A stretch of 64,000 nt of DNA, taken from positions 328,431-392,430 of the forward strand of contig CAVYNH010000004.1 in the NCBI GenBank assembly GCA_963769885.1, in the 5' to 3' direction. The translations under genes and the position numbers were made by a program. The DNA comes from Methanobacteriota archaeon. Its GTDB lineage: Archaea; Thermoplasmatota; E2; DHVEG-1. Shown here one piece after another: positions 14,608 through 32,041 of this stretch. The notes under the pieces were generated by a model. The model was given only the letters and a program-made list of their open reading frames with translations, made no database searches and was not told the origin of the DNA. Within the stretch, counting starts at the first letter, position 1; the number at the start of each line of letters is the position of its first letter.

Positions 14608-14661
14608 CGCCGGGAGGGAGATTTCGATTTAGATTTACTGATAAACAATCAGTTTCTTACC
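14608..14661 (-). repeat. att-like tRNA-Ser 3' fragment plus flanking motif (left junction)
   Basis: 15/16 identity to 31959-31974, followed by tttactgataaacaatcagtttc. Confidence 0.75.
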
Positions 14662-14813
14662 ATAATATCTAAGAAATTTCATCACAAATTAATTATCTTA
14701 GAGATTCAAAAGACTCGAGCGCAATAAAAAAAATGCGTAAAATATTTCATAATTTGTAAACCCAAAGGATTTATTAATGCCATTTTAGGTTATTGAAAAC
14801 AGATAGAGGAATT

Positions 14814-15227
14814 ATGAGATTAGCCGTAGTAGACACAGAACGATGTATTGATTGCCAGAGTTGTATGTTTGCTTGTGCCCGGCGACAGAATGAAGCAGGA
14901 TTATCCAGCTCCTGCATAGGAGTGAAATCGATCGGTGGCATGGAACGAGGGTTTATAGTGTTGGTTTGTAGAGCATGTGATGATCCTCCTTGTTCAAAAG
15001 TATGCCCAACTGATGCTCTCAAACCCAAGAAAGGAGGGGGCGTACTTCTCGATGCTGCAAAATGTATAGGGTGTGGTCACTGCCGTGATTCTTGCATTAT
15101 CGGGGCAATTTTCTGGAATGATGAAATCAATAAACCAATGATTTGCATTCACTGTGGATATTGCACTCAATTCTGTCCTCATGGGGTATTAAAATTAGAA
15201 AAGAAGGAGAGAATAATACATGCTTGA
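14814..15227 (+). CDS. 4Fe-4S polyferredoxin (AOR electron-transfer partner)
   Basis: CIDCQSCMFAC, CRACDDPPCSKVCP, CIGCGHCRDSC, CIHCGYCTQFCP. Confidence 0.92.
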   Translation: MRLAVVDTERCIDCQSCMFACARRQNEAGLSSSCIGVKSIGGMERGFIVLVCRACDDPPCSKVCPTDALKPKKGGGVLLDAAKCIGCGHCRDSCIIGAIFWNDEINKPMICIHCGYCTQFCPHGVLKLEKKERIIHA

Positions 15228-16980
15228 GAATGATACGCTCTCCCGTGTACTGTATATCGATCTTTCAAAGAACGAGTTTTGGATTGAAAAAAAACCAGAG
15301 CTTTTCGAGAAGCATCTGGGCGGAACAGGTGTTGCAATCCAGCTGCTTCATGAAAACTGTCCCAAAGGATGCAATGCGTTTGCACCAGAGAATCCAATTA
15401 TATTCGCCGTAGGACCCTTAACCGGATTATTTCCTCTTGCTTCAAAAACCGTAGCCATGTTTAAATCACCTCATACTGGCAATCTGGGTGAGAGTCATTG
15501 TGGTGGACGAAGCGCTATTGCCATCCGTATGGCGGGATATGGAGCTATCGTGATCAAAGGATCAAGTGCTACCCCATTATATCTATCCATCAAGGACAAA
15601 AAAGTGTTTTTCCGTGATGCCTCTACTTTATGGGGGATGGAAAATTGTTTCACCGTAGGACGTATCATTAGGGAAAATGAGCCTGGCTCGGGTTTAAGAA
15701 CAATTATGCGTATTGGAGGAGCAGGAGAGAAACTTGTTTCATACGCATGTGTTACAACAGAAACATACCGTCATTTCGGTAGACTTGGTTTAGGAGCTGT
15801 TTTTGGAAGTAAGAAACTCAAAGCGGTAGTAATCGCTGGTAAACGCTCGCTCCCTGTACGTGACATGGATCAATATCGGAAGCTGTATGATGATATTTAT
15901 CAATCAGCTGTCACCTCGTCGGTAATGAAGAAATATCATGATCTTGGAACAGCTGAGAATGTTCTACCTTTAAATGAGCTCGGTGGGTTTCCTACAAGAA
16001 ATCTTGAGACAGCAAAATTCGAAGGTGCTTCTAAACTATCAGGTGAGGTATTTGCTGAGCAGTATTTGGGGAGACGGCTTGCGTGTTCTCATTGTCCTGT
16101 AGGATGCATTCATATTGCCGCACTTAGGGAGTCATATGGAGATGAACCGTATTTCTATAAGACGTCTATGATCTCGTATGATTATGAGCCTATCTATGCT
16201 CTCGGTTCCATGTTGGGAATATCCGATGCTGAAGGTTTCTTAAAATTGATGGAGCAGGTAGAAATACGAGGTTTAGATGCAATGAGTACTGGTGTTGTTT
16301 TAGCTTGGGCTACCGAGGCTCAAAAACGAGGTATTATATCTGAGAAGGAAACAATGGGTATCAATCTTCGATGGGGTAATTATAATGCTTACATGGAGGC
16401 GGTACGATGCATTATTGAGCAACCAAATGAGTTTTACAAAGCGCTTGCACATGGAGTTAAACAGGCTGCTTCGCAGTATGGTGGGGCTGATTTTGCTTTA
16501 AGTCTTGGCGGTAATGAAATGCCAGGTTATCACACTGGACCTGGAGCGCATCTGGGGGTCTTGATTGGTTCAAGACATAGTCACTTAGATAACGCAGGTT
16601 ATAGTATTGATCAAAAAATTCTGTTAACAAAACGGATTAGCTCTGAGGAACTTGCAAAAGTGTTATTAGACGAGGAACGTTGGCGTCAGATTTTGTCAAG
16701 CCTTGTAATTTGTTTCTTCGCAAGAGGCATATTTACACCGGATATTGTCTCAAAAGCGTTGCAGGTGGTAGGTTTTGATTTTCAACCCGAAGATCTTCAT
16801 AAAATCGGAGAAGAGATTCATAGAGAAAAATATAAGTTTAAGATCCGAGAAGGTTTCTCATTGGACACACTTCATGCGCCTAAACGAATTTTTGAAACCC
16901 CTTCGCCAGTCAGTAATTTCGATGAGAAGTTCATCCTCGATGCTATAGCCTATGTCAAGAGAGAACTTTTATTAGAATAG
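15220..16980 (+). CDS. aor: Tungsten aldehyde:ferredoxin oxidoreductase family protein
   Basis: KSPHTG..GESHCGG, GRLGLGAVFGSKKLKA, ACSHCPVGC, DYEPIYALG, GLDAMSTG. Confidence 0.9.
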   Translation: MLENDTLSRVLYIDLSKNEFWIEKKPELFEKHLGGTGVAIQLLHENCPKGCNAFAPENPIIFAVGPLTGLFPLASKTVAMFKSPHTGNLGESHCGGRSAIAIRMAGYGAIVIKGSSATPLYLSIKDKKVFFRDASTLWGMENCFTVGRIIRENEPGSGLRTIMRIGGAGEKLVSYACVTTETYRHFGRLGLGAVFGSKKLKAVVIAGKRSLPVRDMDQYRKLYDDIYQSAVTSSVMKKYHDLGTAENVLPLNELGGFPTRNLETAKFEGASKLSGEVFAEQYLGRRLACSHCPVGCIHIAALRESYGDEPYFYKTSMISYDYEPIYALGSMLGISDAEGFLKLMEQVEIRGLDAMSTGVVLAWATEAQKRGIISEKETMGINLRWGNYNAYMEAVRCIIEQPNEFYKALAHGVKQAASQYGGADFALSLGGNEMPGYHTGPGAHLGVLIGSRHSHLDNAGYSIDQKILLTKRISSEELAKVLLDEERWRQILSSLVICFFARGIFTPDIVSKALQVVGFDFQPEDLHKIGEEIHREKYKFKIREGFSLDTLHAPKRIFETPSPVSNFDEKFILDAIAYVKRELLLE

Positions 16981-17000
16981 ATAAGAAGTAACACTGGGCT

Positions 17001-17100
17001 TACAACAAAAAAATAATGCTTTTTCCTCCGTATTTATATTTTGATTAAAAAAATCTATAAAATAGTTCAGAGGAACGAGATGTGAACGTCAATTTACTGG
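17001..17100 (-). repeat. Degenerate att-like junction (flank motif plus tRNA-Leu-type 3' fragment)
   Basis: tagttcagaggaacgagatgtgaac resembles 30813-30833; gagatgtgaacgtcaatttactgg matches 30134-30157 at 17/24. Confidence 0.5.
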
Positions 17101-17198
17101 TTTGCTCCTTAATTCATTGACACCCATCGTATAATGAATGGTTATGTCATCGGCCTGAAAAACTGTATTACATCGATTACAGACATATTTCATGTATT

Positions 17199-17357
17199 TC
17201 AACTAATTATTCCGCTTAATTTATTATTTTTTATGTAAAAACTAGTCATGTAAACTATTTGTCTGCTATATGGCCGTTGTTCTTTCTTCGCGAGTTTTTT
17301 AATGAGCACATTTTCTTCCTTTGTTAAAGATATATTCATTCGCATTCTTTTTTCCAT
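17199..17357 (-). CDS. Small ribbon-helix-helix DNA-binding protein
   Basis: MRMNISLTKEENVLIKKLAKKEQRPYSRQI: beta-strand followed by two helices. Confidence 0.6.
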   Translation of the reverse strand: MEKRMRMNISLTKEENVLIKKLAKKEQRPYSRQIVYMTSFYIKNNKLSGIIS

Positions 17358-17752
17358 GTTTACACAAACATGTAATAACCTTACATACTTATATGCCTTT
17401 CTACACAAAGGTATATACTACCTACGACATACTACTATCATCCGATAAACTTCGGAAAGGACCGCTGAAGTCAATGAAGATCAACGAACAAGTAAAACAA
17501 CCATTGGAAACGCAAACGACTTCAAACTTTGCAATCAGGTCCTTATTTCCAGAGCCGGATACTTAACGCTTACTCTGAAAATGAAAACTAAGAAAATGAG
17601 ATAAACGAAATATCAAGGGCGATCATATCGTCCAAGTCTCTTTTTTTAGTAGGAAAAATAAGGAAAAAATTTGTATATGCTTTGAGCGGAAATTTAGTAA
17701 GAGATAATGACCCCAAAGGTCAAGGAATCGAAGGTTATAAGGAGGGTATATA

Positions 17753-18940
17753 ATGCCATCAGTCTGTCTCTATTTCGAAGTTCATCAGCCAATGAGATTA
17801 AATCGTTTTACGGTATTCAATATAGGTGCAAACCATAATCGACCTTCCGAGTATTTTAATAGTAAACTTAACCAAGAAATCTTTGAAAAAGTTGCAAAAA
17901 AATGTTATCTTCCAACAAATAAAATATTGCTTGAATTAATTAATAAATATGATGGCAAATTTCGGGTTTCATTTAGTTTAACCGGTACATTCATTGAATA
18001 TTGTGAACGTTATATGCCTTCGGTTCTTGATAGTTTTAAGGCTCTGTTTGCCACAGGTGCTGTTGACCTCATCGAGGAGACATATTTTCATTCACTTTCA
18101 AGCTTGTATGACGATCTGGATGAGTTCGAAAAGCAAGTACATATGCATCGGCAGATGATAAAAAGAATATTTAACTATGAGCCAAAGATTTTCAGAAACA
18201 CGGAAACAATCTATGATAACCGTATAGCAAGAAAAATAGCCGAGTTGGGATACAAAGGAATTATCACTGAAGGAGCAGATAAGATTTTAGGATGGCGTTC
18301 ACCAAACTTTGTCTACAAACCAGTGAACGCAAATATCAAAGTACTCATGAGAAACTACAAACTCAGCGACGATGTCGGGTTCCGGTTTTCTTCACGAAAC
18401 TGGCCAGAATTCCCGCTGATGGCAGATAAATACGCGAACTGGATGTCCAACTCCTTTGGTGATGTCATTAACCTGTTCATGGATTACGAAACCTTCGGGG
18501 AACACCAATGGACGGAAACCGGGATCTTTGAATTCCTCAAGCATCTCCCCGGGGAAGTCTTTAAACATGATAACCTTGATTTTGCTACCGTCAGCGAAGT
18601 GGTTGAGCGATATAAACCTGTTGGAGAAATAGATGTCCCCTGGGCAATTTCATGGGCAGATGAAGATCGGAACGTCTCAACATGGCTTGGAAATGATATG
18701 CAAATAGCATGTTTTAACGAATTAAAAAACATCGGTAGAAAACTGAAAGAAAAGGGTAATGAGGTGCTACTCAAAACCTGGCGTCGTCTCCAAACATCAG
18801 ATCATTTGTACTACTGTTCAACAAAAGGTTTTGCTGACGGAGCTGTCCATGCCTATTTTAGCCCATATGATGATCCCTACGAAGGATTTATGAACTACAT
18901 GAATATATTACAAGATTTAAAACAAAGAGTAACTATGTAA
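17753..18940 (+). CDS. Glycoside hydrolase family 57 (alpha-amylase-like)
   Basis: FEVHQP, ETYFHSL, FRNTE, MDYETFGEHQ, LQTSDHLYY; GGAGG RBS. Confidence 0.93.
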   Translation: MPSVCLYFEVHQPMRLNRFTVFNIGANHNRPSEYFNSKLNQEIFEKVAKKCYLPTNKILLELINKYDGKFRVSFSLTGTFIEYCERYMPSVLDSFKALFATGAVDLIEETYFHSLSSLYDDLDEFEKQVHMHRQMIKRIFNYEPKIFRNTETIYDNRIARKIAELGYKGIITEGADKILGWRSPNFVYKPVNANIKVLMRNYKLSDDVGFRFSSRNWPEFPLMADKYANWMSNSFGDVINLFMDYETFGEHQWTETGIFEFLKHLPGEVFKHDNLDFATVSEVVERYKPVGEIDVPWAISWADEDRNVSTWLGNDMQIACFNELKNIGRKLKEKGNEVLLKTWRRLQTSDHLYYCSTKGFADGAVHAYFSPYDDPYEGFMNYMNILQDLKQRVTM

Positions 18941-18976
18941 AGGTTGGTGATTGAAGATCAGAGGAGGTAACGCATA

Positions 18977-19069
18977 ATGCCTAAATGTGAGCGATGTGGT
19001 AAATCCTTTAAAACTAAAAAGGCGCTACACATACACTATACAAAAGCACACAATAAAGGATATGCATGA
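18977..19069 (+). CDS. 30-aa C2H2 zinc-finger microprotein (MPKCERCGKSFKTKKALHIHYTKAHNKGYA)
   Basis: C-x2-C-x3-F-x5-L-x2-H-x4-H; GGAGGT RBS. Confidence 0.75.
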   Translation: MPKCERCGKSFKTKKALHIHYTKAHNKGYA

Positions 19070-19186
19070 ATGCCTAAATGTGATCTTTGTCATAAATATT
19101 TTAAGACAAAGGCACAGATGAAACAACATAGAATAAAAGAACACACTAAGAAAATTTCTGGTACTCAATTTAGGATCCCCAAATAG
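19070..19186 (+). CDS. 38-aa C2H2 zinc-finger microprotein (MPKCDLCHKYFKTKAQMKQHRIKEHTKKISGTQFRIPK)
   Basis: Same C2H2 spacing; paralog of the preceding ORF and abuts its stop codon. Confidence 0.7.
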   Translation: MPKCDLCHKYFKTKAQMKQHRIKEHTKKISGTQFRIPK

Positions 19187-19200
19187 AATTTTTATCTATG

Positions 19201-19235
19201 TGCTGTCAATCATTAGCACAAAACGGGGGGATTCT
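19201..19235 (-). repeat. Highly degenerate att-like copy
   Basis: aatcattagcacaaaacggggggattct resembles aatgattagcgcgggcagggagattct (30115-30141). Confidence 0.4.
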
Positions 19236-19301
19236 CAGAAAGGAATGTTTTTTAAAGAATAAGTTGTTATTTTCTTGTAATTTGGAGGAGGCATAAAGAA
19301 T

Positions 19302-19541
19302 ATGAAAACAAGAAGTAAAACGATATACAAAGGAGAATTACTTAATCTGTATGATATATCCCCCAATACTGAAGACTTATTTGATGGTGTAATAGTAGAA
19401 TATATAATCATCCGAGCCGGTAAAGAGAGTCACCAAATATTCATAGATAGAGCAACATTCAATAACATAATAAAAGAACTCCCCAATGCAATAGCGAATT
19501 ACAAACAATACAAAAATAAATACCCGAAAAGGAAGGCATAG
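19302..19541 (+). CDS. Hypothetical protein
   Basis: 79-aa ORF with a GGAGGAGG RBS. Confidence 0.6.
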   Translation: MKTRSKTIYKGELLNLYDISPNTEDLFDGVIVEYIIIRAGKESHQIFIDRATFNNIIKELPNAIANYKQYKNKYPKRKA

Positions 19542-19753
19542 AGAATTATTGAATGTGCTATTCATGGAACTGAATATGATGCAGTAAATAGTAGGGGCGT
19601 GTGTAACGATTGTAATAGTTTCCTAATAACCAATTTATATCATAATCTACTTTAAATATCAACGAGTGTTTTGAAGATATAATTTGCAAGAGGGAAGGGT
19701 ATGTTTTTAAAGAAAAAGATGCCTTGAAATATTGTAGATTTGAGGGGAGACAA

Positions 19754-19957
19754 ATGAAAGAGAAAAAATATCCCACAACCGAAAGAAGCAGAAAGCGACT
19801 AGGAAGACTAAAAACCGAAGAAAAAATATACGAAGAAACGCAGAAAGAAGAAAAGAAAAGAACACAAAAAGATATTATCCTGGACGAAGAAGAAGACGAA
19901 GAAAAAGAAGAGGAAGAAGACGATGAATATGCGAATTGTTCAAAAAAAGAAACGTAG
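19754..19957 (+). CDS. Small charged low-complexity protein (basic N-terminus, poly-D/E C-terminus)
   Basis: GAGGGG RBS before the ATG at 19754. Confidence 0.45.
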   Translation: MKEKKYPTTERSRKRLGRLKTEEKIYEETQKEEKKRTQKDIILDEEEDEEKEEEEDDEYANCSKKET

Positions 19958-20139
19958 AAGATAAAACTATATAGCCGCCCAGAAAAAGCAGTTATGAAAT
20001 TGTAGGTTTTAGTGGGGGGAATGTGGTAAAAAGAAGATTCCTGAAAAGGATATGATGTGCTTAAGAGGAACACAGACCATTCAAAATTATAAAAATACTC
20101 GCACAAAATTTTATGATCAAGAATAAAAAGAAATATCAA

Positions 20140-20452
20140 AAAAATATTATTTTTTATCTTTCTTGCCGCTATCTATTATTTTTCTAGCTCTATCAACACC
20201 GTGTTCGTAGTCGTCTTTTCTAAGTTTAATTCTTCTCGTTTTTCTTTTATTATAATCTGGATGTTTTTTAATGTGAGGCATATATTTTAGAACATTTGCT
20301 GATTTAAAAAGATATCTGGTGACTGGAAAAATGTTGAATCAATCCAATAATTTTTCTATGCTCATGACCGTTAGTGCAGAGGACAAGAAATTGACACGAT
20401 TTTAAAAGTAAAAAAATTGTGTTTTTCTTCTATTAATTAACCGTGCTAATAA
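20140..20452. repeat. ~300-bp diverged duplication (microprotein, leader, tRNA-Leu-type fragment, flank motif), copy 1
   Basis: Collinear with 29103-29372 plus 30078-30118, e.g. tgaggcatatattttagaacatttgctgatttaaaaa and catgaccgttagtgca. Confidence 0.85.
20147..20281 (-). CDS. 44-aa basic microprotein, copy 1 (MPHIKKHPDYNKRKTRRIKLRKDDYEHGVDRARKIIDSGKKDKK)
   Basis: Diverged paralog at 29245 keeps the reading frame. Confidence 0.65.
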   Translation of the reverse strand: MPHIKKHPDYNKRKTRRIKLRKDDYEHGVDRARKIIDSGKKDKK

Positions 20453-20644
20453 AAACAGGTTAAAATTATACTAAAACCTTCAAACAGAAATCTTTATTTT
20501 ACATTATCGGAGAAACATTAGCATGGTTAAACCCATGTTTTTGTGCAAATGATTATCAAGCAAATAAACGGGTTACCCAAAGGATTTTTTCATATATTTA
20601 CCATCATCGCACTGTATGCGTTCCCGTAATATTATGAATATTTT

Positions 20645-20995
20645 TTACGAATTTTTCTCAGCAATGTCACCAACAACAGGCAATTTCCATTTCTGCCCCT
20701 GGAACGCTTTAATCATCAGAATAACCCACAAGATTATCACAAGGACCCAGAACAGCCAGCTGATCCACCACAGGAAATACCAACCAGGGCCGTAATTGAA
20801 TAACCCGAAAAACCCACCGAAAATCCACCCGAGGATGGATAGTGGCAGAAACACCAAAATAGACTGCATCGCATGAAAACGAATCGTCTTATTTTTATCA
20901 TCGATAAAATAGAAGATTATGCCGGTGATCCAAATCCCAAGGTAACAGAGCGCTGCCTCAACATTTTCCTCAAGTCCTAACGATGTTTTTACCAT
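20645..20995 (-). CDS. DUF4870/Tic20-like small membrane protein
   Basis: TSLGLEENVEAALCY, IRFHAMQS, KAFQGQKWKLPVVGDIAE. Confidence 0.85.
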   Translation of the reverse strand: MVKTSLGLEENVEAALCYLGIWITGIIFYFIDDKNKTIRFHAMQSILVFLPLSILGWIFGGFFGLFNYGPGWYFLWWISWLFWVLVIILWVILMIKAFQGQKWKLPVVGDIAEKNS

Positions 20996-21075
20996 ATTTT
21001 TTCCTTCTGTCCATTCACACTCATCTTTTATTTAATGATTTTCATTCATCGCATGTATCGTTTTTTAAAACGCTA

Positions 21076-21267
21076 TCATAATCCGATACTGTGAAAGATA
21101 CCCACGAGAAAATCGAGTCCGATGAGAGCGATAATTACTATTGCGATGAAGATGAGAACCCATATAGCAAATTTTATTACTCCCCATAGCAGAAACACGA
21201 TCACAAGAATTCCAAGAAGTACCGCCCAAAACGGAATTGTATAACCAAATACATCCATCTCTTTCAC
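21076..21267 (-). CDS. Small 2-TM membrane protein
   Basis: Hydrophobic ORF within a co-oriented run. Confidence 0.6.
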   Translation of the reverse strand: MKEMDVFGYTIPFWAVLLGILVIVFLLWGVIKFAIWVLIFIAIVIIALIGLDFLVGIFHSIGL

Positions 21268-21386
21268 TTCTCCGTCTACAAACGATTATTTTTATTTCTT
21301 TTTTTCTGAAACACCTTCATTTACATCTCTCTTTTATTTATTCATTCTCATTCGGTAAATAGACGAGCGGACAAACTAACCAATAT

Positions 21387-21524
21387 TTAAGTCCTCATTA
21401 TGTTTTTACCTGCTGGACGGTTTTTAACCATCCCCTTTCCACCCGGACGACCGCCTGTCTTTGCTCCTCTTTTAGCTCGGTTTTTGGCTGCCGTCATTCT
21501 GCCGCCTCTGCTTTTCTTTGCCAT
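21387..21524 (-). CDS. 45-aa very basic Gly/Lys/Arg microprotein (MAKKSRGGRMTAAKNRAKRGAKTGGRPGGKGMVKNRPAGKNIMRT)
   Basis: GGAGGT RBS; no acidic residues. Confidence 0.65.
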   Translation of the reverse strand: MAKKSRGGRMTAAKNRAKRGAKTGGRPGGKGMVKNRPAGKNIMRT

Positions 21525-21591
21525 ATTTTATCTACCTCCAAATTTTTTCTTTTTTCATTCTATTTTGTCTCTCATTTTGAGGTCCAAGATA

Positions 21592-21738: not shown

Positions 21739-21748
21739 TTTAATCGTC

Positions 21749-22096: not shown

Positions 22097-22145
22097 CTAA
22101 ATACCTCAGCGTATGGTCCTATCAACTCCCGGTCTATATATAGAA

Positions 22146-23521: not shown

Positions 23522-23540
23522 TTATGGAAAGAAACGAACG

Positions 23541-25196
23541 CTATGCAGTCTGTCGTTTATGCAGCAATGTTTTTCCTTTTTCTGTCACATAGACCGTTCG
23601 ATACTTTCCTTGTTTTTTTAAAAAAATCAGACCTTTTTCTTCAAGGAGATTTAATCGTTTTGCAGCAGTTGAATACGCTACGTTAGAATTGGTTATTATT
23701 TTTTTGAAAGAAACCATTGAATTACTCTGATTTTGTTCATAAACATATTTTAACATATCATAGAGAATATCATCGAGAATAAGACCGTCTAATTTCTGGC
23801 TCGGTAATAATTGAAATTCATTTTCAAAAATCGCCATCTGACTATTATCGACAATCGACGGATCGATACGTAGTACGACAATCAATTGACTCTTCAGAAC
23901 AAGATCGTTAATTTTATACATGGCATCAATAAATTTTTCAAAAGAAAATTTAGTGATAAAATAATGCGCGCCATCTATTGCGATAATTGATTTTTTATTT
24001 CTCAGACTTATTTCTTTCACCATGGCTACTAATTCATCGGGGTTTGCAATTGTTTCAAATCCTTTGATTTTTTCATGACTTAATAATAAAAGCTGGCTGT
24101 TCAAATTATGAGACATGTTACCTGTCATTTCAACACTAGAACGGGAAATAAACATTCCCTCATATCCGGATGTAGTCAAATCTCTATATAAATCTCGTAC
24201 AGAGCTATTATTTTTACTAATGATAAGATAGCTGTTCCCTACAAGTATTTTCCCGTGAGCTTCGATATCTCCTGTGATGTCTCTGCCGATAAAAAGAGAG
24301 CCGATGGTTATCCCATCAGGATTCTTAACCGACGATTCTGATATTCGAATGATCTTTTTTAAATTATTTTTTGTCAGTAACACCAAATCATCATGCCCTT
24401 GGTGAGTACCGTTATTTTTTATAATATCTAATATTTTCGAATGGCCATTAAACACAGATAAATTTTCTATAGATCGATTCATGACCTCTTTTTCGGTATA
24501 GCCCGTAAGCAGTTCCGTTGTTTTATTCCAGGTATTTACTCTATTGTTCGAATCGAATGAAAAAATAATCTCTGATGCACTATCAATGATGTTCTCCAGA
24601 TAATCTTTTGTTTTCACAGTTTCATCTTCTGCTTTTTTCCGCTCCTTCGTTTCACTTGAAAGGTTTTTAGTTGTTGTCTTAAGTTGTGCGGTCCGAGCAT
24701 TAATGAGTTGTTCTAATTTTTTTTGCATTTGTAGCATTTTTTCTTGTTCTTTCTTACGTTCTGTGATATCTCTAATATTACATTGGATTACTTTTGTATG
24801 ATCGACCATGTAGCTATTACTGACAAATTCCACATATCTTAACTTTTTTTGTTTCGTTTGAAGTGGGAGATGTTCATAACGGACGTATGTTTCTTTTTGA
24901 AGTTTTTGAAATAGTTCTATGTTTTCTGCGATATTTTTAAAAGGGCTAATTTCCCAGAGTTTTTTTCCCTTGAGTTCATTCAGAGAATAACCCAGAAGAT
25001 TTTGAACGAATGGATTAGCGTCTGTTATTTGTCCGGTTTCTCCATCCAAAATAAGGATAGCATCTTGAGCTGCTTCAAAGAGTCGCCTATAGCGTAATTC
25101 AGAATTTTTTAATATTTCGTCATCTATCTGATGTTGAGGGTCATTAGATTTTATTCCTGTTTTGAAATTAGTAATGGCGTTATTTTTTGGGACCAT
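23541..25196 (-). CDS. PAS-PAS-DUF835(KaiC-like)-wHTH one-component regulator
   Basis: RYRRLFEAAQDAILILD..IRDITERK, a second PAS, GNSYLI..IAIDGAHY..RIDP, and C-terminal TAAKRLNLLEEKGLI..VYVTEKG. Confidence 0.85.
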   Translation of the reverse strand: MVPKNNAITNFKTGIKSNDPQHQIDDEILKNSELRYRRLFEAAQDAILILDGETGQITDANPFVQNLLGYSLNELKGKKLWEISPFKNIAENIELFQKLQKETYVRYEHLPLQTKQKKLRYVEFVSNSYMVDHTKVIQCNIRDITERKKEQEKMLQMQKKLEQLINARTAQLKTTTKNLSSETKERKKAEDETVKTKDYLENIIDSASEIIFSFDSNNRVNTWNKTTELLTGYTEKEVMNRSIENLSVFNGHSKILDIIKNNGTHQGHDDLVLLTKNNLKKIIRISESSVKNPDGITIGSLFIGRDITGDIEAHGKILVGNSYLIISKNNSSVRDLYRDLTTSGYEGMFISRSSVEMTGNMSHNLNSQLLLLSHEKIKGFETIANPDELVAMVKEISLRNKKSIIAIDGAHYFITKFSFEKFIDAMYKINDLVLKSQLIVVLRIDPSIVDNSQMAIFENEFQLLPSQKLDGLILDDILYDMLKYVYEQNQSNSMVSFKKIITNSNVAYSTAAKRLNLLEEKGLIFLKKQGKYRTVYVTEKGKTLLHKRQTA

Positions 25197-25586
25197 TTAC
25201 TTCGCCCCCGTTTACACAAAATTGAAACTGTTTAGTATGTTTTTATAGTGTCATGCATAAGATAAAATGAAAATACGTTTTATATACTTTTCTCATAAAG
25301 CCAGATGATTTTTAAATTTCTGTCTACAATTTTACATTCTTCAGGAACTGTATAGAATTTTATGGTTTATACTGTTTTTCAATTGATTTTTATATATTAT
25401 TTAGTCATGCCTATATACTTACGAGAACATAGATGGAAGTATCGACCGAGGTTAAAAAATGATAAACGGAATAATAAGATTGCTTGTAGGCGTAGTTGTG
25501 ATCGTCGTTCTAATATGGATAATACTAGCAGTCGTGCACGCATTTTAATTTGAATACGCATAGAGAAACCTGGAGAAAAGGTCAAC

Positions 25587-25784
25587 ATGAGCGATAAAGA
25601 AAAAATAGTCTCAGCACTTCGCCTCATCAACGGAAAAAAGGAGAATGTGGAGAAGATAGCGGAGACGGTAGACAAGTTTTTCGAGAATCTGCACCTTGAA
25701 ATAGAGGACTGGAAATTTTCGATGGAAGAGTTCAGCGATGGCACACGTATCTTTATTCGGTTCCAAATCCTTGTAAAAAAGTAG
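25587..25784 (+). CDS. Small 'WKFS' family protein, paralog A
   Basis: IEDWKFSMEEFSDGTRI matches the ORF at 28090-28269. Confidence 0.7.
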   Translation: MSDKEKIVSALRLINGKKENVEKIAETVDKFFENLHLEIEDWKFSMEEFSDGTRIFIRFQILVKK

Positions 25785-25794
25785 GTGGTTCTAA

Positions 25795-26421
25795 TTGAAT
25801 CCTGATACGAATAAGGCAAAGAGTAAACCCAATACGAAGACGACAAAGTCAGAGCATGTCCTCATAGATCCTGAGGAATGGAAAGATCCTGATGGACGGA
25901 GAGTTGTCGCGGAATACCACAAGAAGAATCTTCCGGAAACACAAGCTGACAATGGAATGCAAGACGAGACGAATGATGAGGTAAAATCATCGGATACAGA
26001 AACCACAGGTGATTCATCAGAACAGAAGTTGCGTATATCACGGATCTTGGATATTTCTACAGTTGAGATGATAACGTACGCTTTGTTCCGCGCCATGTTC
26101 GGTAAAAGTATCCATATACCTTTGAAACGCGAGGGCGTCATAGATATGGATATCGCTATTGAGGATAACGATATCATCCTAAACACCAACGATGTCACAT
26201 TCATACCGCCTGATCTAAAAATCTGGCGCCTCATATTCACATATAAAAATAAACCAATAATAGAATACGGTCGTGGAATCAAACGCGGCATGAAGATTCA
26301 CTACGGCCATGCGATTATCTTCCTCCTTGCAATGTGGTCCGGGGGTAGAAAGACTAGGAAGGCCCAGGAAAAAGCCGCTAAAATCGCAGAATTGGAAAAA
26401 ACCCGCAACAGCGAAGGTTAA
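25795..26421 (+). CDS. Hypothetical protein
   Basis: 208-aa ORF in an apparent operon; GGTGG RBS and TTG start. Confidence 0.65.
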   Translation: MNPDTNKAKSKPNTKTTKSEHVLIDPEEWKDPDGRRVVAEYHKKNLPETQADNGMQDETNDEVKSSDTETTGDSSEQKLRISRILDISTVEMITYALFRAMFGKSIHIPLKREGVIDMDIAIEDNDIILNTNDVTFIPPDLKIWRLIFTYKNKPIIEYGRGIKRGMKIHYGHAIIFLLAMWSGGRKTRKAQEKAAKIAELEKTRNSEG

Positions 26422-26452
26422 AATAAGATAAATAATAAGAAAGGTACAGATA

Positions 26453-27328
26453 GTGATGACCAATAAAACGGGGCAACCTACCCATGAAGCCCATCAGGCC
26501 TTTCTACAGGATATACAGCGCAACATCCGACGGATCCTATCCGAAAATTATAAGATGAAAAAGATTTCCATCGAGTATATTGCTGCAGGCGCCGCTCGAC
26601 TTTCAAATCCGATAAAAATCACAGGGGTGAACGAAAAAGGGGAAAAGATCCGTTACTTCGGCAAGGTCATCGGCAGCAACGATATTTTGTCAGTCCGCTA
26701 CATCCAGTTCCTTAAAAACATCTATCTGGAGATGAATACACAACAACCGCTCTTCGAGATGTACGAGACGACAGAGGACATGGTCCGAGATCAATACGAG
26801 ATGATGCAAACTATTTATAAAAGCGGAATACCAGCGATAAAGCCATATGGCTATCATCAAATAAATCGTTCTCAGTGGCTGCTGGTAGCGGAGTTTCTCG
26901 ATGTAAAACCATTCTCCATGCTTGAGAAGGTCGATCCAAAACAGATAGACTTAGTCTTTTGTTATCTAAAACAGGAACACCGGAAGAAGATCTTCCATGG
27001 GGATATCAAACCCGATAATATATTGGTAGGGGATAAGATTTACATTTTAGATGCCGGCCACTTCCGTAAGGACGCGCCCCCAGCAGAGAAACTGTCCTAC
27101 GATCTCGCCTGTATGATAAGCTCTTTTCTTGAGTACCAGCCTGTTGAAGAAATAGTAAAGATTGCTCAGAAATACTACTCCCAACGGTTTATTCAAGCAG
27201 CTGCGGACTACATCGAACTCATTCAGATGCGCCCGGATATCCATTTTACCAACGAAACAAAACAAAAACTTCTGCTCCTTCTGAAAGGTCAACGAGAAGC
27301 AGGGTATCGAAAAAAGACATCACGCTAA
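26453..27328 (+). CDS. RIO1/Bud32-like protein kinase-fold enzyme
   Basis: LVAEFL hinge, FHGDIKPDNILV catalytic loop, ILDAG. Confidence 0.85.
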   Translation: MMTNKTGQPTHEAHQAFLQDIQRNIRRILSENYKMKKISIEYIAAGAARLSNPIKITGVNEKGEKIRYFGKVIGSNDILSVRYIQFLKNIYLEMNTQQPLFEMYETTEDMVRDQYEMMQTIYKSGIPAIKPYGYHQINRSQWLLVAEFLDVKPFSMLEKVDPKQIDLVFCYLKQEHRKKIFHGDIKPDNILVGDKIYILDAGHFRKDAPPAEKLSYDLACMISSFLEYQPVEEIVKIAQKYYSQRFIQAAADYIELIQMRPDIHFTNETKQKLLLLLKGQREAGYRKKTSR

Positions 27329-27393
27329 CGTACCTTCCTGTTTATCGGGTAGAGATATGTTAACTGCCATAGCATGCAAATATAATACTTGTT

Positions 27394-28014
27394 ATGGTAA
27401 TGGTAATGATAGATATGGAAAAAAAAATTAATGTCGTAGATTTGGATAGCACGTTACTGCCCTATGATTCGTTGATACATTTCGTATGGCTTTTCATGAA
27501 AAATCGGCGATGTTTCCTTCCATTATTATTGTACTTGACACAACGAATGACTGGAAATATAACAAAAGAGGAGTATCTTAAAAAAATTCTGATTACTGCA
27601 AGGAAAACAACGCAATATGAAAAAAAAGTAAAAAAGTTTGGTCTGTCGTTGTATGATGATATTCGTACACCAATGTTACGTTTTATCTTAAAAAATACCG
27701 ATGAGTTTACGACTAACGTACTCTGCACAGCATCACCTCAAGATTATGTTAAATATCTATGTGAAAAACTAGGTTGGTCGTGTATAAGTAGTACACTGGA
27801 TGACAATGACGAAAATTTCATTCATATGTACGGACCTAACAAAGTATCTGCTGTACAAAAAATGTACCCCAAACAAGATTATTCCTATCATTTAGCAATG
27901 TCGGATAACAAAAGTGACCGCGATCTGTTGAAATTATTTGAAACATCGTATCATATAAAAAAAGGTGTAAAAGTACATATTAAAAAAATCAACAAGATAG
28001 AAGTTAAAAGGTAA
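27394..28014 (+). CDS. HAD-superfamily (IB-like) hydrolase
   Basis: VVDLDSTL, CTASP, GPNKV, SDNKSD. Confidence 0.8.
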   Translation: MVMVMIDMEKKINVVDLDSTLLPYDSLIHFVWLFMKNRRCFLPLLLYLTQRMTGNITKEEYLKKILITARKTTQYEKKVKKFGLSLYDDIRTPMLRFILKNTDEFTTNVLCTASPQDYVKYLCEKLGWSCISSTLDDNDENFIHMYGPNKVSAVQKMYPKQDYSYHLAMSDNKSDRDLLKLFETSYHIKKGVKVHIKKINKIEVKR

Positions 28015-28022
28015 AAATTTGC

Positions 28023-28053
28023 TGCACCTTTTTCTAAACATACCAAAGGTGCA
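28023..28053. terminator. Inverted repeat between convergent genes
   Basis: tgcaccttt...aaaggtgca. Confidence 0.4.
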
Positions 28054-28089
28054 ACTTTGATAAAAAATAGAGCGTTATACCTACTGGCT

Positions 28090-28269
28090 TTACTTTTTGT
28101 CCTTTGGATGTTTGATAAGAGCTATCGCGTGCATTTCCACCCGCATACCTTCTTTGGTATCCTCGACGGAAAACTTCCACTGCTCCAGCTTCGCATCCAT
28201 ATCCATGAACCATTTCTTAAGCTCTTGACTCTTCGTCTTCAAATTATCTCCTACATTTTTACTCGCCAT
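28090..28269 (-). CDS. Small 'WKFS' family protein, paralog B (MASKNVGDNLKTKSQELKKWFMDMDAKLEQWKFSVEDTKEGMRVEMHAIALIKHPKDKK)
   Basis: 59 aa; GGTGA RBS; shared promoter motif; homologous to the ORF at 25587. Confidence 0.8.
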   Translation of the reverse strand: MASKNVGDNLKTKSQELKKWFMDMDAKLEQWKFSVEDTKEGMRVEMHAIALIKHPKDKK

Positions 28270-28273
28270 TAGT

Positions 28274-28355
28274 TATCACCTATACATACTCCATTGTTAC
28301 CGTGTTATATCAGTATGACTTAAAAACAACTAAAGAACAGTATAAAAACAATGTA
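28274..28355 (-). promoter_or_regulatory. Conserved promoter/operator motif, copy 3
   Basis: Collinear with 23441-23521. Confidence 0.75.
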
Positions 28356-28386
28356 ATACTTTTAAAAAAATTAGGCCGTTTGAACA

Positions 28387-28998
28387 TTGATTCAAAATTT
28401 CTTGATTGCACAATATGCATTATATAGAACTAATAGTATACCTGCTGCAGAGGAAAAAATGAGGAAAAAACCTTCTGTAAATTCTAAAAAGGATAAGACA
28501 AATCTAGCGAATAAACCATCCCTGATAGACAGCGACATAACTGAAATATCTCAAAGGATTTTATTGGAGCTTGAAACCGCAAGTTCCAAGGATTTATCAG
28601 AAGCCAAATATGCAAAAAAGATTTTACAATTGTCGGATCTTGATTATACAAAAAACTTATTTCGCGAGATAGAAAGTGTTCCATCTGGACCTGAACGCGT
28701 TATCGAAAAAAGAGCGGTGATCCAGGCATTGTTGCTTTCTACATGGTTGCAGAGGCTCTATTTTATTATCAGGGCCGCTCTTATGTCGGTCCTAGGCGCG
28801 GTCGTTACATTCTTTTACGTATTGTTCTTTGGCCAAATAGGTGTTGTTCTAGCAGTTATCATGGGCGTGCTTATTTTTATTATTGGATTGATTGTGACAA
28901 GATTATTTGATACACAAATAGTCAAGGCTACAAAATATATCGTCAGACGTTTGAGTTATCATAAAAAGATTAGGGAATTTATTATGAATCACTTCTAG
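28387..28998 (+). CDS. Membrane protein with C-terminal TM helices (start uncertain, possibly 28459)
   Basis: ORF with two TM segments. Confidence 0.65.
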   Translation: MIQNFLIAQYALYRTNSIPAAEEKMRKKPSVNSKKDKTNLANKPSLIDSDITEISQRILLELETASSKDLSEAKYAKKILQLSDLDYTKNLFREIESVPSGPERVIEKRAVIQALLLSTWLQRLYFIIRAALMSVLGAVVTFFYVLFFGQIGVVLAVIMGVLIFIIGLIVTRLFDTQIVKATKYIVRRLSYHKKIREFIMNHF

Positions 28999-29245
28999 GC
29001 GAAATGTAGGGCCAATTAATTGATAGGATAATGTATGAATTGTAGAGATTATCAGAATGCCTCATGTTACAAAGAAGCTTACAGTTTACACTTATCTCGA
29101 TTAAAAAAATATTATTTTTTTTCTTTTTGCCGGCATCCACTATTTTTCTAACTCTATCAGCGCCGTGCTCGTAATCACCTTTTTCAAGTTGGGTTCTTCT
29201 TGTTCTTTTTTTCATATAATCTGGATGTTTTTTAATATGAGGCAT
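28982..29245 (-). CDS. Basic microprotein, copy 2 (MPHIKKHPDY...; C-terminus extended by a homopolymer slip)
   Basis: First ~44 aa align with 20147-20281. Confidence 0.55.
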   Translation of the reverse strand: MPHIKKHPDYMKKRTRRTQLEKGDYEHGADRVRKIVDAGKKKKNNIFLIEISVNCKLLCNMRHSDNLYNSYIILSINWPYISPRSDS

Positions 29246-29371
29246 ATATTTTAGAACATTTGCTGATTTAAAAAAATGTCTAGTGTCTGAAAAAAATTCG
29301 AATCAATCCAATAATTTTTCTTTAATCATGACCGTTAGTGCAAGTGACGAAACATTGACACGAATTCACTA

Positions 29372-30077
29372 GTAATGAAATAGGGGCAAAGCCCCTATGA
29401 CCCCGTTCCGCCTTCGTTCCTCGGCAAGCCCTTTTGGTCTTGCCGTATCTCACTCGGCGGATAGTCGTTTTTGTCGGTCGTCGATGATGGTCACGTTGTG
29501 ATGTCGTTGCTGATCCCGTAGGTAGGCTGAGGATTCATCGAGGTTGGTCAGGCCGGTGGATTCGTGGTGCTCGTACCCGCTCCAGAATCCACCTCGCGGG
29601 TAGCGTTTGCGAAACCCGGGGTGCGCCCCGAACAGCTTCATAGCGCTGTGGGATTTGAGCATGATCTCAGCGCTCTGAATGGAGTACCGTTTTGGGACAT
29701 TGACCTGGAGGTGGACGTGGTCTTCGGCGAACCCGAGTTCGCCGAACCCGAACCCAAAGCGTTCCAGGTCATGGAACGCCTGGGTGCAGGAGTCGATGTG
29801 GCTTTGTTTGCTGAAGCAATGGTAGCGGTTCTTGGTCACAAACATCATGGTAACCCAGTTATTGCGGGTGTCACCCGCAACCTTTTTAGAGCTATCGCTC
29901 GATACAATCTCCATAAGTTTTTGAACTCCAGTCGCGCCAATACAGGGGCAGGCGGAACGCCTGCCACGCGCGACAAAAAACGAGTATCGAGTGTTTTGAG
30001 AAAAAGACGACGAGCGGCCTTTCATCTGCAGGTCTTACGCTGTTGCTTCAGACCGTGCAGTATTCCCGGCCGCTATT
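29372..30077 (-). mobile_element. IS200-like element (tnpA only) inserted in an att-like junction
   Basis: GC-rich block interrupting the duplicated segment; hairpins aggggcaaagcccct, cggcaagccc..ggtcttgccg and ggcaggcggaacgcctgcc; ends are approximate. Confidence 0.8.
29450..29914 (-). CDS. tnpA: IS200/IS605 Y1 (HUH) transposase
   Basis: MFVTKNRY, EDHVHL, LKSHSA, FWSGY, catalytic AYLRDQ. Confidence 0.9.
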   Translation of the reverse strand: MEIVSSDSSKKVAGDTRNNWVTMMFVTKNRYHCFSKQSHIDSCTQAFHDLERFGFGFGELGFAEDHVHLQVNVPKRYSIQSAEIMLKSHSAMKLFGAHPGFRKRYPRGGFWSGYEHHESTGLTNLDESSAYLRDQQRHHNVTIIDDRQKRLSAE

Positions 30078-30190
30078 GATAAATTGTGTCTTCCTTCTGT
30101 TAATTAACAGTGCTAATGATTAGCGCGGGCAGGGAGATTCTGACTTCATTTTACTAGTAAAAAATTATGTTGCATATCTGTTAAACGATT
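30078..30190 (-). repeat. att-like junction: flank motif, tRNA-Ser 3' fragment, flank motif
   Basis: tagcgcgggcagggagattc matches 31956-31975 at 19/20; the preceding aaattgtgtcttccttctgttaa resembles 31916-31938. Confidence 0.85.
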
Positions 30191-30322
30191 TTTTTCAATT
30201 TTAGAGGTCCCTGTATGGATCTGAGCATCAATTTACCAGTAAATTTATTCATGATTCAATGTGGATAGCGAATATCTTTATTATAGAATGTATTGATTGC
30301 ACAATTGATTCAGGAGCATCGT

Positions 30323-30802
30323 ATGGTGGATGAAGTTCTAATAGATAACCTGGTTGTTTTTTCTGCAATTATCTACTATGCTTTCTTATGTGTAGTTTAT
30401 TTGTTGCGCGCCTATGAGCGCGATAAACTGGAATTGATGCTTGCCCCGGTCTTTAGTTTGCTGCTGGTGCCATTTGTTGCTTTGTGGACGTTGAACCTTC
30501 TCAATGGAAGCGACAGTGGACGCTTGATTACGGGGCTTCCGATAATCATCTATCTGGTCTACGATCTCTGGTATCGTTTAATTACGAAAAAGAAACCTCA
30601 ACATCATCCCGACCGTTGGCCTATTGGTTTGATAGTATACCTCATACTCCTTCAAATTGGGAGTATAGCCTTGAATTGGTACGGGTTCATCGTATCGAAA
30701 TTCTATGGAAATATGCTTATAATCTGCTACTTCGTCATGCTAGGTTGTTTTGGGTTTTACCAAAATAGATACAATAAGAGGAAAAAGATCATTACGAACT
30801 GA
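30323..30802 (+). CDS. Multi-TM membrane protein
   Basis: About five hydrophobic segments; GGAG RBS. Confidence 0.7.
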   Translation: MVDEVLIDNLVVFSAIIYYAFLCVVYLLRAYERDKLELMLAPVFSLLLVPFVALWTLNLLNGSDSGRLITGLPIIIYLVYDLWYRLITKKKPQHHPDRWPIGLIVYLILLQIGSIALNWYGFIVSKFYGNMLIICYFVMLGCFGFYQNRYNKRKKIITN

Positions 30803-30812
30803 TGGCAAAGGA

Positions 30813-30875
30813 TGCAGGGGAAGAGACTTGAACACCAAAATACAAGCAACAAATACAGGTTTCCTCTTTAAACTG
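30813..30875 (-). repeat. tRNA-Leu-type 3' fragment plus flank motif
   Basis: Reverse complement GTTCAAGTCTCTTCCCCTGCA = T-loop, T-stem 3', acceptor 3' and discriminator A. Confidence 0.55.
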
Positions 30876-30890
30876 AAAAAATCTTCTAAT

Positions 30891-31705
30891 TCATTTTGTC
30901 TTAACAAAAGGCTTTTTTAGAAAAGAAAGAGCAGAAGCGTAGATTGAAATTGTAATCAAAGGAATATGCAAGATACCGTTCCACCATAATTGGTCGGGGA
31001 TCATAATAAAATTTACTAAAATGTTATAGAAGGCTAGAATGAGCCCAACAAAACTCGTGACTCTCAGTGTTGCTATGTTAACCCGTGGGTAATAAAAGGT
31101 GAGTATTGCAAGATACACTGGCGTCATCATACAGAAAAATAGACCCGTAGCATTCGAAAAAATGTAAAGAGGATTGAAATCGGGCAGGTAAGTATTTGGA
31201 TTCGCAGGATAACAAAACGCTAGAAACGCGAAGGGAATCACCCAATATTTCCATAAAGGCTGTTTTGAGGTGTGAAATCATTTTTCTGAGCCAGTACCTC
31301 CCAGAACCAAAAAGCAGCGACAATACAAATCGCAACGAGATTGCTTGTGACAATTCCTAAACCATATTCTTCAGTAACGGCAATGTTTTGAAGAAATGCA
31401 AAAAGAACATAGGAGATAGCCACATAAATGCTAAAGAGACGTGTAACCTTGTTTCGGAGAAAGAAAATTGAAAAAATTAAGATGATCGGGATTATTTTAA
31501 AAATTGGATATATTACAGGATAGGAATATATTACACCATCCTTTCCAAGTATCGCACTTGTGAGTTTTCCTATTTCTGTTAAATCAACTCCTTTTGATGT
31601 GTAAAGTGGAATGAATTGTGCAAGGATAATAACGAGAAAAAATCACCATTTTCTGGTTAGTGATTCCAGTTTTGTTTGAATTCTATCAAGATTTTTAATG
31701 TTCAA
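30891..31705 (-). pseudogene. Multi-TM membrane protein with a nonsense codon and a frameshift
   Basis: TTG start with AGGAG RBS; in-frame TGA at 31643-31645; frameshift near 31260 (TPQ/QPLWKYW). Confidence 0.7.
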
Positions 31706-31958
31706 ATAATTTCTCTCCTTAATTACACTGTTTGAGTAAATCAATTATGAGACGGATATTTGTCTGAAGAACTTATAACTTACTGCAATCATTCATCCTC
31801 TCATCTATCAGACAAATAACGCCTCCATTTTTTTGTTCAAAAGAGAGGGAGAATATTTATTTAAAAATAGTAATAAGATTGCACCTTTAGGATCTAAGCG
31901 TCGATGTACCGATAAAAATTGTGTTTTTCTTCTGTTAAATAATTATGCTAAAGAATAG

Positions 31959-32041
31959 CGCGGGGAGGGAGATTCGAACTCCCGAGGTCAAAGACCACAG
32001 GATTAGCAATCCTGCGCCTTACCAGGCTGGGCCATCCCCGC
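31959..32041 (-). tRNA. tRNA-Ser(GCT)
   Basis: GCGGGGA/TCCCCGC acceptor, CAGGA-TTGCTAA-TCCTG anticodon arm, long variable arm, GGGAG-TTCGAAT-CTCCC, discriminator G. Confidence 0.97.

Follow-up and report, generated by a model that had tools for sequence, protein, structure and literature searches.

We analysed a stretch of 64,000 nucleotides (hereafter the window; positions 328431–392430 of contig C4) from the genome of a Methanobacteriota archaeon (G000, an assembly of 7 contigs, 92% complete) and found, at its tRNA-Ser(GCT) gene, an island of low guanine-plus-cytosine (GC) content that is composed of modules without an integrase. The island probably formed by tandem accretion of such modules at tRNA-Ser through integrases acting in trans, in the manner of cis-mobilizable elements (CIMEs), followed by decay and reshuffling. 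It spans positions 14608–31957 of the window (about 17 kb), with about 36% GC compared with about 60% in host DNA. The 3′ end of the tRNA gene points into the island, its final ~21 nt being referred to here as the Ser core, and the distal island end holds a copy of the final ~20 nt with one mismatch and one indel, so that tRNA-Ser(GCT) 3′-end copies flank the island on both sides. GC-rich (60%) host sequence directly abuts the distal Ser core at 14608. The tRNA 3′ end, the distal repeat and the GC step are together what DNA integrated at the 3′ end of a tRNA gene looks like.

The sites within the island were located by repeat finding, self-BLAST and profile searches. Self-BLAST and repeat finding returned Ser cores at 14608, 30124 and 31959, a 65-nt repeat (P′ arm and core) at 30081 and 31916 with the arm alone again at 20414, and a 280-nt repeat at 20135 and 29103. 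Because circularity was to be avoided, hidden Markov models (HMMs) of Ser-type and Leu-type junctions were made from the junctions of other genomes only and then run on the window; the comparison set consisted of 108 genomes of the same family, in 40 genera (G-numbers below are relatives, L-numbers metagenome contigs). A generic arm model gave four matches of at least 12 bits in the window, compared with none in 60 Markov shuffles of it, so that junction similarity was better than shuffled background, and all matches of at least 6 bits lay on the minus (tRNA) strand, in agreement with the co-orientation claimed in an earlier reading of the same DNA made from sequence alone. From the tRNA to the distal end, the sites are as follows:

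31958–32041, minus strand: tRNA-Ser(GCT), the anchor and attB side (ARAGORN; Rfam tRNA, 56 bits).
31914–31957, minus strand: P′ arm right after tRNA-Ser, 83% identical to 30081–30145 (Ser-type HMM match 31914–31982, E 2e-13).
31882–31940, minus strand: J0b, P arm with a degenerate tRNA-like core, at most ~20 nt from the tRNA end (9.6 bits, E 0.03, generic P-arm HMM).
30812–30874, minus strand: J1, P arm (30839–30874) with a tRNA-Leu 3′-end core (30813–30833), 19 of whose 21 bases are identical to the host tRNA-Leu 3′ end (Leu-type HMM match 30812–30874, E 4e-8).
30205–30249, minus strand: J1b, palindrome TTTACTGGTAAA with a degenerate core, at the end of cassette B (6 bits only).
30081–30189, minus strand: J2, a complete attP-like site of P arm (30146–30189), Ser core (30124–30145) and P′ arm (30081–30123) (Ser-type HMM match 30081–30189, E 6e-22).
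20135–20455, minus strand: J3, a P′ arm (20414–20455, 89% identical to 30081–30117) minus its Ser core, with the first copy of a 320-nt module.
19200–19260, minus strand: J4, degenerate Ser core with P′ palindrome (GCTAATGATT..), without an HMM match.
17059–17109, minus strand: J5, P arm with a degenerate Leu-like core (6 bits, E 0.4–1.7).
14608–14661, minus strand: the distal end, attR, with Ser core (14608–14627) and P arm (14628–14661, TTTATCAGTAAA..) (Ser-type HMM match 14583–14656, E 9e-9; GC step).

The sequence-only reading had listed Ser-type tRNA fragments near 14608, 19213 and 30124 and Leu-type fragments at 17063, 20371, 29335 and 30813. The HMMs recovered those at 14608, 30124 and 30813. 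The copy at 19213 (J4) is degenerate and matched no HMM, yet lies on a homology breakpoint, where similarity to G112 ends at 19240 and similarity to G108 begins at 19231, a switch within 10 nt. The copy at 17063 (J5) is weak and, like 30218–30248 in J1b, scored 6 bits, inside the shuffle range, but it is bracketed by block homologies, one ending at 17046 and the next beginning at 17110. J1b is kept in the congener G001, where homology breaks off directly after it. At J3, neither sequence inspection nor the relatives-only HMMs nor the generic arm model found a Ser core. The two remaining Leu-type copies, at 20371 and 29335, scored at noise level (3.7 bits) and turned out to belong to a duplicated module of about 320 nt that encodes a small open reading frame (ORF). 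An origin of these two from tRNA-Phe was considered because G107 and G108 anchor a collinear array (corresponding to 17144–29109) at tRNA-Phe; it was ruled out, the window containing no Phe-like core and the repeat encoding the small ORF.

A common architecture underlies the well-preserved sites. An arm of about 45 nt reads, in order, ..AACAGrnAAAA.., ATTTTT, a 12-bp palindrome TTTACYRGTAAA and 4–8 nt, and is followed by the T-loop-to-acceptor part of a tRNA. The P arm stands directly upstream of each well-preserved core and runs on from the P′ arm of the previous site, and Ser-type and Leu-type P arms can be aligned with each other. The ~40-bp flank motif of the sequence-only reading is thus real and belongs to the site itself, in two parts (P arm and P′ arm); its proposed copy at 17001 was not detected. 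At the anchor, a GCTA..TAGC palindrome straddles the tRNA-Ser end and is followed by TTAACAGAAGAAAAACACAATTT in the P′ arm, and a P′ arm of this type also lies behind tRNA-Ser in G001, G014, G018, G020 and G053. By itself, the palindrome TTACYRGTAA showed no genome-wide enrichment in G000.

Ser-type junctions were present in 36 of the 108 family genomes (18 of 40 genera), and a general scan found them in 49 metagenome contigs. The arm was conserved in the metagenome junctions, while clustering gave 29 groups for the sequence after the core and 28 for the cargo end before the arm. A scan of IMG/VR for P arm and Ser core, and a metagenome scan for the arm specific to the aldehyde oxidoreductase cassette described below, gave no match. 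Among relatives, a Leu-like core followed the Ser core at a distance of 61–80 nt in 8 of 35 cases, compared with 0.7% of random positions; the Leu-type cassettes within the Ser array can be understood because Ser-type sites often bring such a core with them. Mixed Ser/Leu arrays occur in G107:C119 and G116:C102 as well. Many metagenome junctions (contigs L149, L162, L169, L171, L176 and L177) show, ~40–75 nt past the Ser core, the Leu-like core with its own inverted copy in front of it (..AGAGATTTGAACC TGA GGTTTAAGTCTCT..), an arrangement that could form a hairpin.

DNA searches of the 108 family genomes, combined with inspection of loci, revealed that the island consists of independently distributed blocks that are ~80–96% identical in other genera. 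Several shared blocks end at junctions, and some are located at other tRNA anchors. The congener G001 carries a smaller, different island at the same tRNA-Ser and has in common with G000 only cassette B, one Ser junction and an insertion sequence (IS). The blocks measure 0.6 to >8 kb and have genes on both strands:

14662–17058, plus strand: block F, a 4Fe-4S ferredoxin (14793–15227) and an aldehyde:ferredoxin oxidoreductase (AOR; 15220–16980) (Pfam).
17110–19199, plus strand: block E, an 81-aa ORF (17321–17566), a GH57 glycoside hydrolase (17753–18940) and C2H2 mini zinc fingers (18977–19069 and 19070–19186) (Pfam).
19240–20134: block D, an acidic 193-aa protein (19558–20139, minus strand) and a 79-aa ORF; G112:C27 is 89% identical over 19240–19594.
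Within 20135–20455, minus strand: first copy of the 320-nt module, with a 44-aa ORF (20147–20281).
20592–23071: mosaic of small ORFs, DUF4870-like (20645–20995), lipocalin-like (21749–22096) and others (Pfam).
23441–28269: PAS block, a PAS-PAS-DUF835-winged helix-turn-helix (wHTH) protein (23541–25196, minus strand), an unknown ORF (25795–26421), a kinase-like ORF (26453–27328) and a HAD hydrolase (27394–28014) (Pfam).
28403–29109, plus strand: a 203-aa membrane protein (28387–28998) with a weak DUF2207_C match.
29100–29372, minus strand: second copy of the 320-nt module, with a small basic ORF (29093–29245), 83% identical to 20135–20417.
29373–30083, minus strand: IS of the IS200/IS605 type, with a Y1 transposase (29450–30025) (Pfam Y1_Tnp, E 4e-13).
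30250–30811, plus strand: cassette B, a single 169-aa membrane-protein gene (30293–30802).
30875–31881, minus strand: cassette A, a broken 271-aa membrane-protein gene of which 61-aa and 116-aa fragments are left.

The AOR block (14609–17046) is 96% identical to G107:C79:75–2513, from another genus, with homology ending at the last base of the Ser core. Cassette A is 87–89% identical to intact copies in G077:C77, where it lies between two Leu-type junctions, and in G118:C134, where a Leu core stands at its end. Cassette B is 79–87% identical in G001, G120, G083, G070, G012, G004, G103 and G114, and in G083 it follows tRNA-Leu(GAG) as the first unit. At J1, homology ends for cassette A as well as for cassette B. 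Block E (17110–19231) is 83–93% identical in G107, G108, G116, G118, G119, G111 and G004, while chromosomal GH57 orthologues are merely 72–75% identical to its GH57. The membrane-protein segment 28403–29109 is 86–91% identical in G107, G122, G068, G080, G099, G079 and G001, and the PAS block is 89% identical to G107:C89:34755–39581. The mosaic at 20592–23071 has an 88% identical counterpart in G001:C43 and sub-blocks in G107:C89, G109:C11, G014:C37 and G122:C220, with several internal homology breakpoints that carry no att-like site. The statement of the sequence-only reading that junctions separate functional blocks was therefore borne out insofar as modules are found again as units in other genera and next to other anchor tRNAs, and it fails for the interior: the "PAS regulon" that had been taken for one cassette is part of a mosaic (20.5–29.1 kb) with many breakpoints and no att sites.

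Comparable units were found elsewhere. Each of the four tRNA-Leu genes that were located in G000 has one or two low-GC units of ~1 kb with a single ORF, bounded by Leu cores with 0–4 mismatches, and one unit occurs at two loci (83% identity). Six metagenome contigs have tRNA-Ser(GCT) with units of 1.4–2.5 kb behind it that lack an integrase. Separately, G000:C6:290456–292370 (2 kb, 24–33% GC) contains three Leu cores (0–1 mismatch) with no adjoining tRNA-Leu gene, and holds a second copy (83%) of the cassette at tRNA-Leu(CAG) that encodes a secreted 400-aa protein. ARAGORN overlooks an intron-containing tRNA-Leu(TAA) (G000:C7:508750–508879) and a tRNA with anticodon CAU (G000:C4:138430–138545), both of which anchor cassette arrays; the latter is followed by a P′ arm homologous to the Ser type.

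No integrase is encoded in the island. A six-frame PF00589 search of C4:342930–360480 gave no match, tblastn with seven integrases and the G107 partner protein (see below) returned E > 0.3 throughout, not even a fragment, and no integrase fragments were found at 14608 or 31958. In five relatives with 20 Ser junctions and 40 integrase matches, the two never shared a contig. The claim that no block encodes a recombinase holds for tyrosine recombinases; it had overlooked the Y1 transposase at 29450–30025, the sole recombinase of the island. The element that encodes it (711 bp) is by its short, multicopy nature and its Y1 HUH transposase an IS200/IS605-type IS, unrelated to the modules, with at least nine full copies elsewhere in G000 (85–89% identity), mostly on contig C7. 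It sits in the P′ arm of J2 and splits the second copy of the ~320-nt module, 20135–20455 corresponding to 29100–29372 plus 30084–30117, with a basic ORF of 44–50 aa encoded by the module. As a discrete unit of this kind, its HUH transposase was ruled out as builder of the array. Derivatives of ~110 bp resembling miniature inverted-repeat transposable elements and made up of the two IS ends only were seen at G000:C4:98972–99079, 114207–114322 and 117523–117630.

Candidate helpers were found in other genomes. Their layout is a tRNA, an ORF of ~180 aa and a PF00589 integrase of 313–345 aa, and 18 of the 108 genomes, from 12 of the 40 genera, have it; wherever the locus includes a tRNA, the module lies directly behind its 3′ end, as in G107:C81, where a 181-aa ORF and then a 313-aa integrase come after tRNA-Ser(GCT). 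The targets include Ser(GCT) (three times: G107:C81, G076:C44 and G044:C13), Ser(GGA), Leu(GAG, CAA and CAG; the modules at tRNA-Leu are in G004, G070, G012 and G097), Gly, Arg, Glu and Gln. Two complete Leu elements, G070:C27 (9.4 kb) and G097:C291 (17.6 kb), have an attR made of the cassettes' arm and a Leu core. The attL of most helper elements has the arm palindrome just past the core, and its sequence in G076:C44, a Ser(GCT) element, is TTACTAGTAA, the same as in the arms of the window. The Pfam domains of the candidate integrases are the PF00589 catalytic and a SAM-like domain, with no additional arm-binding domain; the arm may nevertheless serve as the integrase's arm-binding site. The family was not found in G000 or G001. 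Since integrases with fitting tRNA targets are present in other genomes only, they would have to act in trans, and the corresponding proposal of the sequence-only reading gains a plausible candidate in this family with its Ser(GCT) and Leu targets.

Other integrases were noted in passing. An integrase element at tRNA-His in G000 has unrelated arms. In the 312 kb around 52 metagenome junctions, the sole recombinase case was a 192-aa protein consisting of a tyrosine-recombinase catalytic domain only (L136:1939–2517 of Ga0209777_10036946; the same in L159; PF00589 E 5e-30, PF16795 28 bits), which points towards a Ser-type junction, with its end 95 nt away. A second low-GC island extends from ~52000 of the window to the contig end and starts with the gene for a 414-aa tyrosine integrase (51911–53155, plus strand) 1.3 kb downstream of tRNA-Gly(CCC) (50504–50575), with a 341-aa ORF on the opposite strand in between.

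On the reading that we favour, accretion in trans, each well-preserved module would end in the ~45-nt arm followed by a copy of the last ~20–25 nt of a class II tRNA (Ser-GCT or Leu). A tyrosine integrase would recombine this site, on a circular module, with the identical 3′-end stretch of the tRNA gene or with a core already in the array, so that the tRNA would be regenerated at each insertion and modules would accumulate in one orientation. The enzyme would come in trans from full-length elements, rarer members of the same gene pool, which carry the ~180-aa partner gene and the 313–345-aa Xer-like integrase right behind the tRNA and have the same arm-plus-core site. The Leu core ~60–80 nt behind Ser-type sites may act as a second landing pad, which would place modules A and B in a Ser array. 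Decay would have followed, with insertion of the IS200-type element, pseudogenization of cassette A and loss or mutation of cores, and the interior at 20.5–29.1 kb would have been rearranged by other processes. We infer the action of this integrase family on the sites, the circular form of the modules and the roles of palindrome and partner protein from these arrangements.

Several observations weigh against accretion in trans. Homology breakpoints lay within 30 nt of only four of the eight junctions named by the sequence-only reading (p ~0.02), with no significant association at 60 nt; and 7 of 46 breakpoint clusters were near a junction or repeat end, the other 39 lying away from them. The expectation that relatives differ at the junctions thus holds for some of these and misses most breakpoints. 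The cores in the window carry 1–3 mismatches, so the array is probably old and inactive. The P arm of cassette B varies between genomes. In the metagenome contig L180, the PAS array is opposite in orientation relative to its Ser junction, which shows that processes besides site-specific insertion also shape the island. A Ser(GCT) helper element complete at both ends was not obtained, and for the integrase elements in G107:C81 and G118:C30 the search of their contigs gave no distal att site. The connection between integrase and sites is suggested by shared architecture only, and the recombination event itself is something we infer.

A bolder version is possible, and we offer it tentatively, leaning towards doubt: a dedicated pool of integrase-less cassettes, maintained by the archaeal family of G000, mostly 0.6–2.5 kb in size and each with the conserved ~45-nt arm and a tRNA 3′-end mimic at its end, that are caught, stacked and exchanged at several tRNA genes by small Xer-like integrases and their ~180-aa partner on rare helpers, with composite Ser-then-Leu sites letting cassettes switch anchors, would be an independently evolved, tRNA-anchored archaeal functional analogue of integrons. 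If modules do move in trans, this lineage of sediment archaea would swap individual genes for metabolism and the cell surface in small units with set boundaries, and these would cross between genera of very different GC content. In the island, their cargo includes regulators and membrane proteins besides GH57 and aldehyde oxidoreductase. The machinery needed would be ordinary tRNA integration reduced to a 70-nt site. The many AT-rich islets at G000 tRNAs would then be explained, and an archaeal counterpart to integron cassettes and CIMEs would be at hand. The defined site (arm, palindrome and core) and the defined integrase-plus-partner pair make the idea testable.

The most serious rival to accretion in trans, though on balance an unlikely one, is decay alone: the modules would be stumps of autonomous integrase-bearing plasmids or proviruses that had entered at tRNA-Ser and then been stripped by deletion of the integrase and most other genes, and cross-genome sharing would stem from transfer of intact ancestors or from homologous recombination between islands, with no movement in trans. 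Archaeal elements are known to lose their integrase once integrated and to form tandem arrays (PMC8371274), and the same is documented for tycheposon islands (preprint 10.1101/2020.12.28.424599). The island does show an inserted IS, a pseudogene, mutated or lost cores and many breakpoints unrelated to junctions, in a genome in which, as in G001, no helper integrase was found. Stumps of this kind fit poorly with an island free of any integrase fragment, and with one recombinase case in all the metagenome sequence surveyed around junctions. The same compact units, moreover, recur in several genera and at different anchors and end at the core or arm where these are preserved, some of them adjoining the tRNA just where the integrase module of a full element would be, and at least 28 unrelated cargo ends share the conserved arm. 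If the modules were mere decay products after all, the locus would be an ordinary but well-resolved case of tRNA-island growth.

The sequence-only reading had gone further in the other direction and proposed an integron-like platform. In a strong version of it, a specialized system would catch promoterless cassettes at class II tRNA sites; its sites would be structured, and it would have a dedicated resident integrase or promoter. The stacking of ~1-kb one-gene units in a single orientation, the conserved element at cassette ends and the recurrence of mixed Ser/Leu arrays in other genera are what such a platform would give, and an integrase-less stack with two core types was indeed found; we nonetheless consider the platform improbable, given that no integrase or attI-like platform adjoins the array, that blocks range from 0.6 to >8 kb with genes on both strands, and that the candidate integrases reside on ordinary tRNA-integrating elements with many tRNA targets. 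The sites are tRNA copies plus arm, and both DNA strands of three junctions folded no better than shuffles (z −0.1 to −1.9); an attC-like or structured-RNA reading was rejected, Rfam returning only tRNA above its gathering score and folding showing no excess. The sites that proved not to be tRNA-derived, the mosaic interior, the lack of attC-like folding and the lack of a resident integrase place the island closer to known CIME tandem accretion than to a new integron-like machine, so that the observation behind the sequence-only reading was largely real and partly confirmed, and its interpretation partly supported. That foreign low-GC DNA was joined to a high-GC contig in assembly or binning, as the sharp step from 60% to 36% GC at both island ends might suggest, is hardly credible, because the steps coincide with the tRNA 3′ end and its direct repeat with arm, G001 bears a different island with cassette B in common at the same tRNA, and many such islands lie at G000 tRNAs in an assembly of 7 contigs.

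Side observations on the cargo concern its regulation and its relatives on the chromosome. An AT-rich motif (..AAAAACAACTAAAGAACAGTATAAA..) recurs at 22146–22181, 23423–23524, 25366–25400 (inverted) and 28256–28358 and precedes several genes of the PAS block; two of these stretches (23423–23524 and 28256–28358) form 103-nt direct repeats that flank the block, and the motif may be an operator for the PAS-wHTH regulator. The GH57 gene of the island (17753–18940) is a second, foreign copy, the chromosomal one being at G000:C6:445967–447153 (68% nucleotide identity). Modules of 17129–19920, namely the 81-aa ORF region, the zinc finger and the acidic-protein repeats, are also present at G000:C6:687732–690287 in different order and orientation. 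The proteins of block D matched no Pfam family.

Among known systems, integrons and integrase-less attC clusters resemble the island in cassette form. Integron cassettes are small, often one-gene and integrase-less units with recombination sites; they all point the same way, come from a common pool and are mobilized by a tyrosine recombinase. In an integron an IntI-type recombinase stands beside the array, whereas clusters of attC sites lacking integron integrases (CALINs) have at least two attC sites and no integrase, and have been reported in archaeal metagenome-assembled genomes too; attC sites are imperfect palindromes that fold into single-stranded hairpins. The island resembles these systems in its small, often one-gene, integrase-less cassettes with sites, in their single orientation and in their shared pool. 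It differs in having no IntI or attI and no attC-like junctions, in being anchored at a tRNA gene, and in its varied block sizes and gene orientations.

CIMEs, known from accretion around ICESt1 and ICESt3 of Streptococcus thermophilus, keep their att sites while the integration and transfer genes are gone; their tandem arrays occupy the 3′ end of a target gene, whether a tRNA or another, where a matching incoming element integrates into a resident att site, and accretion yields composite structures able to move in parts (PMC5704250). The island modules likewise stand in tandem at a tRNA 3′ end and have retained att sites (Ser cores at 14608, 30124 and in the tRNA and a Leu core at 30813, all co-oriented) without integration or transfer genes, and integrase-bearing relatives of matching att specificity exist (the Ser(GCT) and Leu modules, and the attR of the G070 and G097 elements). 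Unlike the CIMEs of ICESt1 and ICESt3, the island is in an archaeon and has no conjugation genes, the mobilization of its modules is putative, some of its units are very small (0.6–2.5 kb, often one gene), and they share a 45-nt arm over many unrelated cargos, with Ser and Leu cores interleaved.

The tycheposon islands of Prochlorococcus grow at the tRNA-proximal end by repeated integration and contain scattered partial tRNAs, with most of their material lacking an integrase and with metabolic and environment-facing cargo (preprint 10.1101/2020.12.28.424599). The present island is similar in all these respects. It belongs to another domain of life, and its putative integrase is of another family, a small Xer-like enzyme with a ~180-aa partner; moreover, it has kept a recognizable arm and core, and its units recur with ends at preserved cores, which was not reported for tycheposons. 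In archaea, tandem integrations with integrase loss have been described (PMC8371274, PMC6563490); passages of PMC8371274 that cite She et al. 2001 and 2004 mention tRNA-derived direct repeats, integrase loss and fixation, and likewise SSV-type gene capture, in which the integrase gene is split by its own integration into Int(N) and Int(C) at the element ends. The island shares with archaeal integrated elements its position at a tRNA gene and its tRNA-derived direct repeats. An SSV-type split integrase was ruled out, PF16795 having no match in G000 and no split integrase flanking the island. Accretion as a process is thus known, and what is new here is the compactness of some units, the arm they share, the interleaving of Ser with Leu cores, and the specific family of integrases with their partner.

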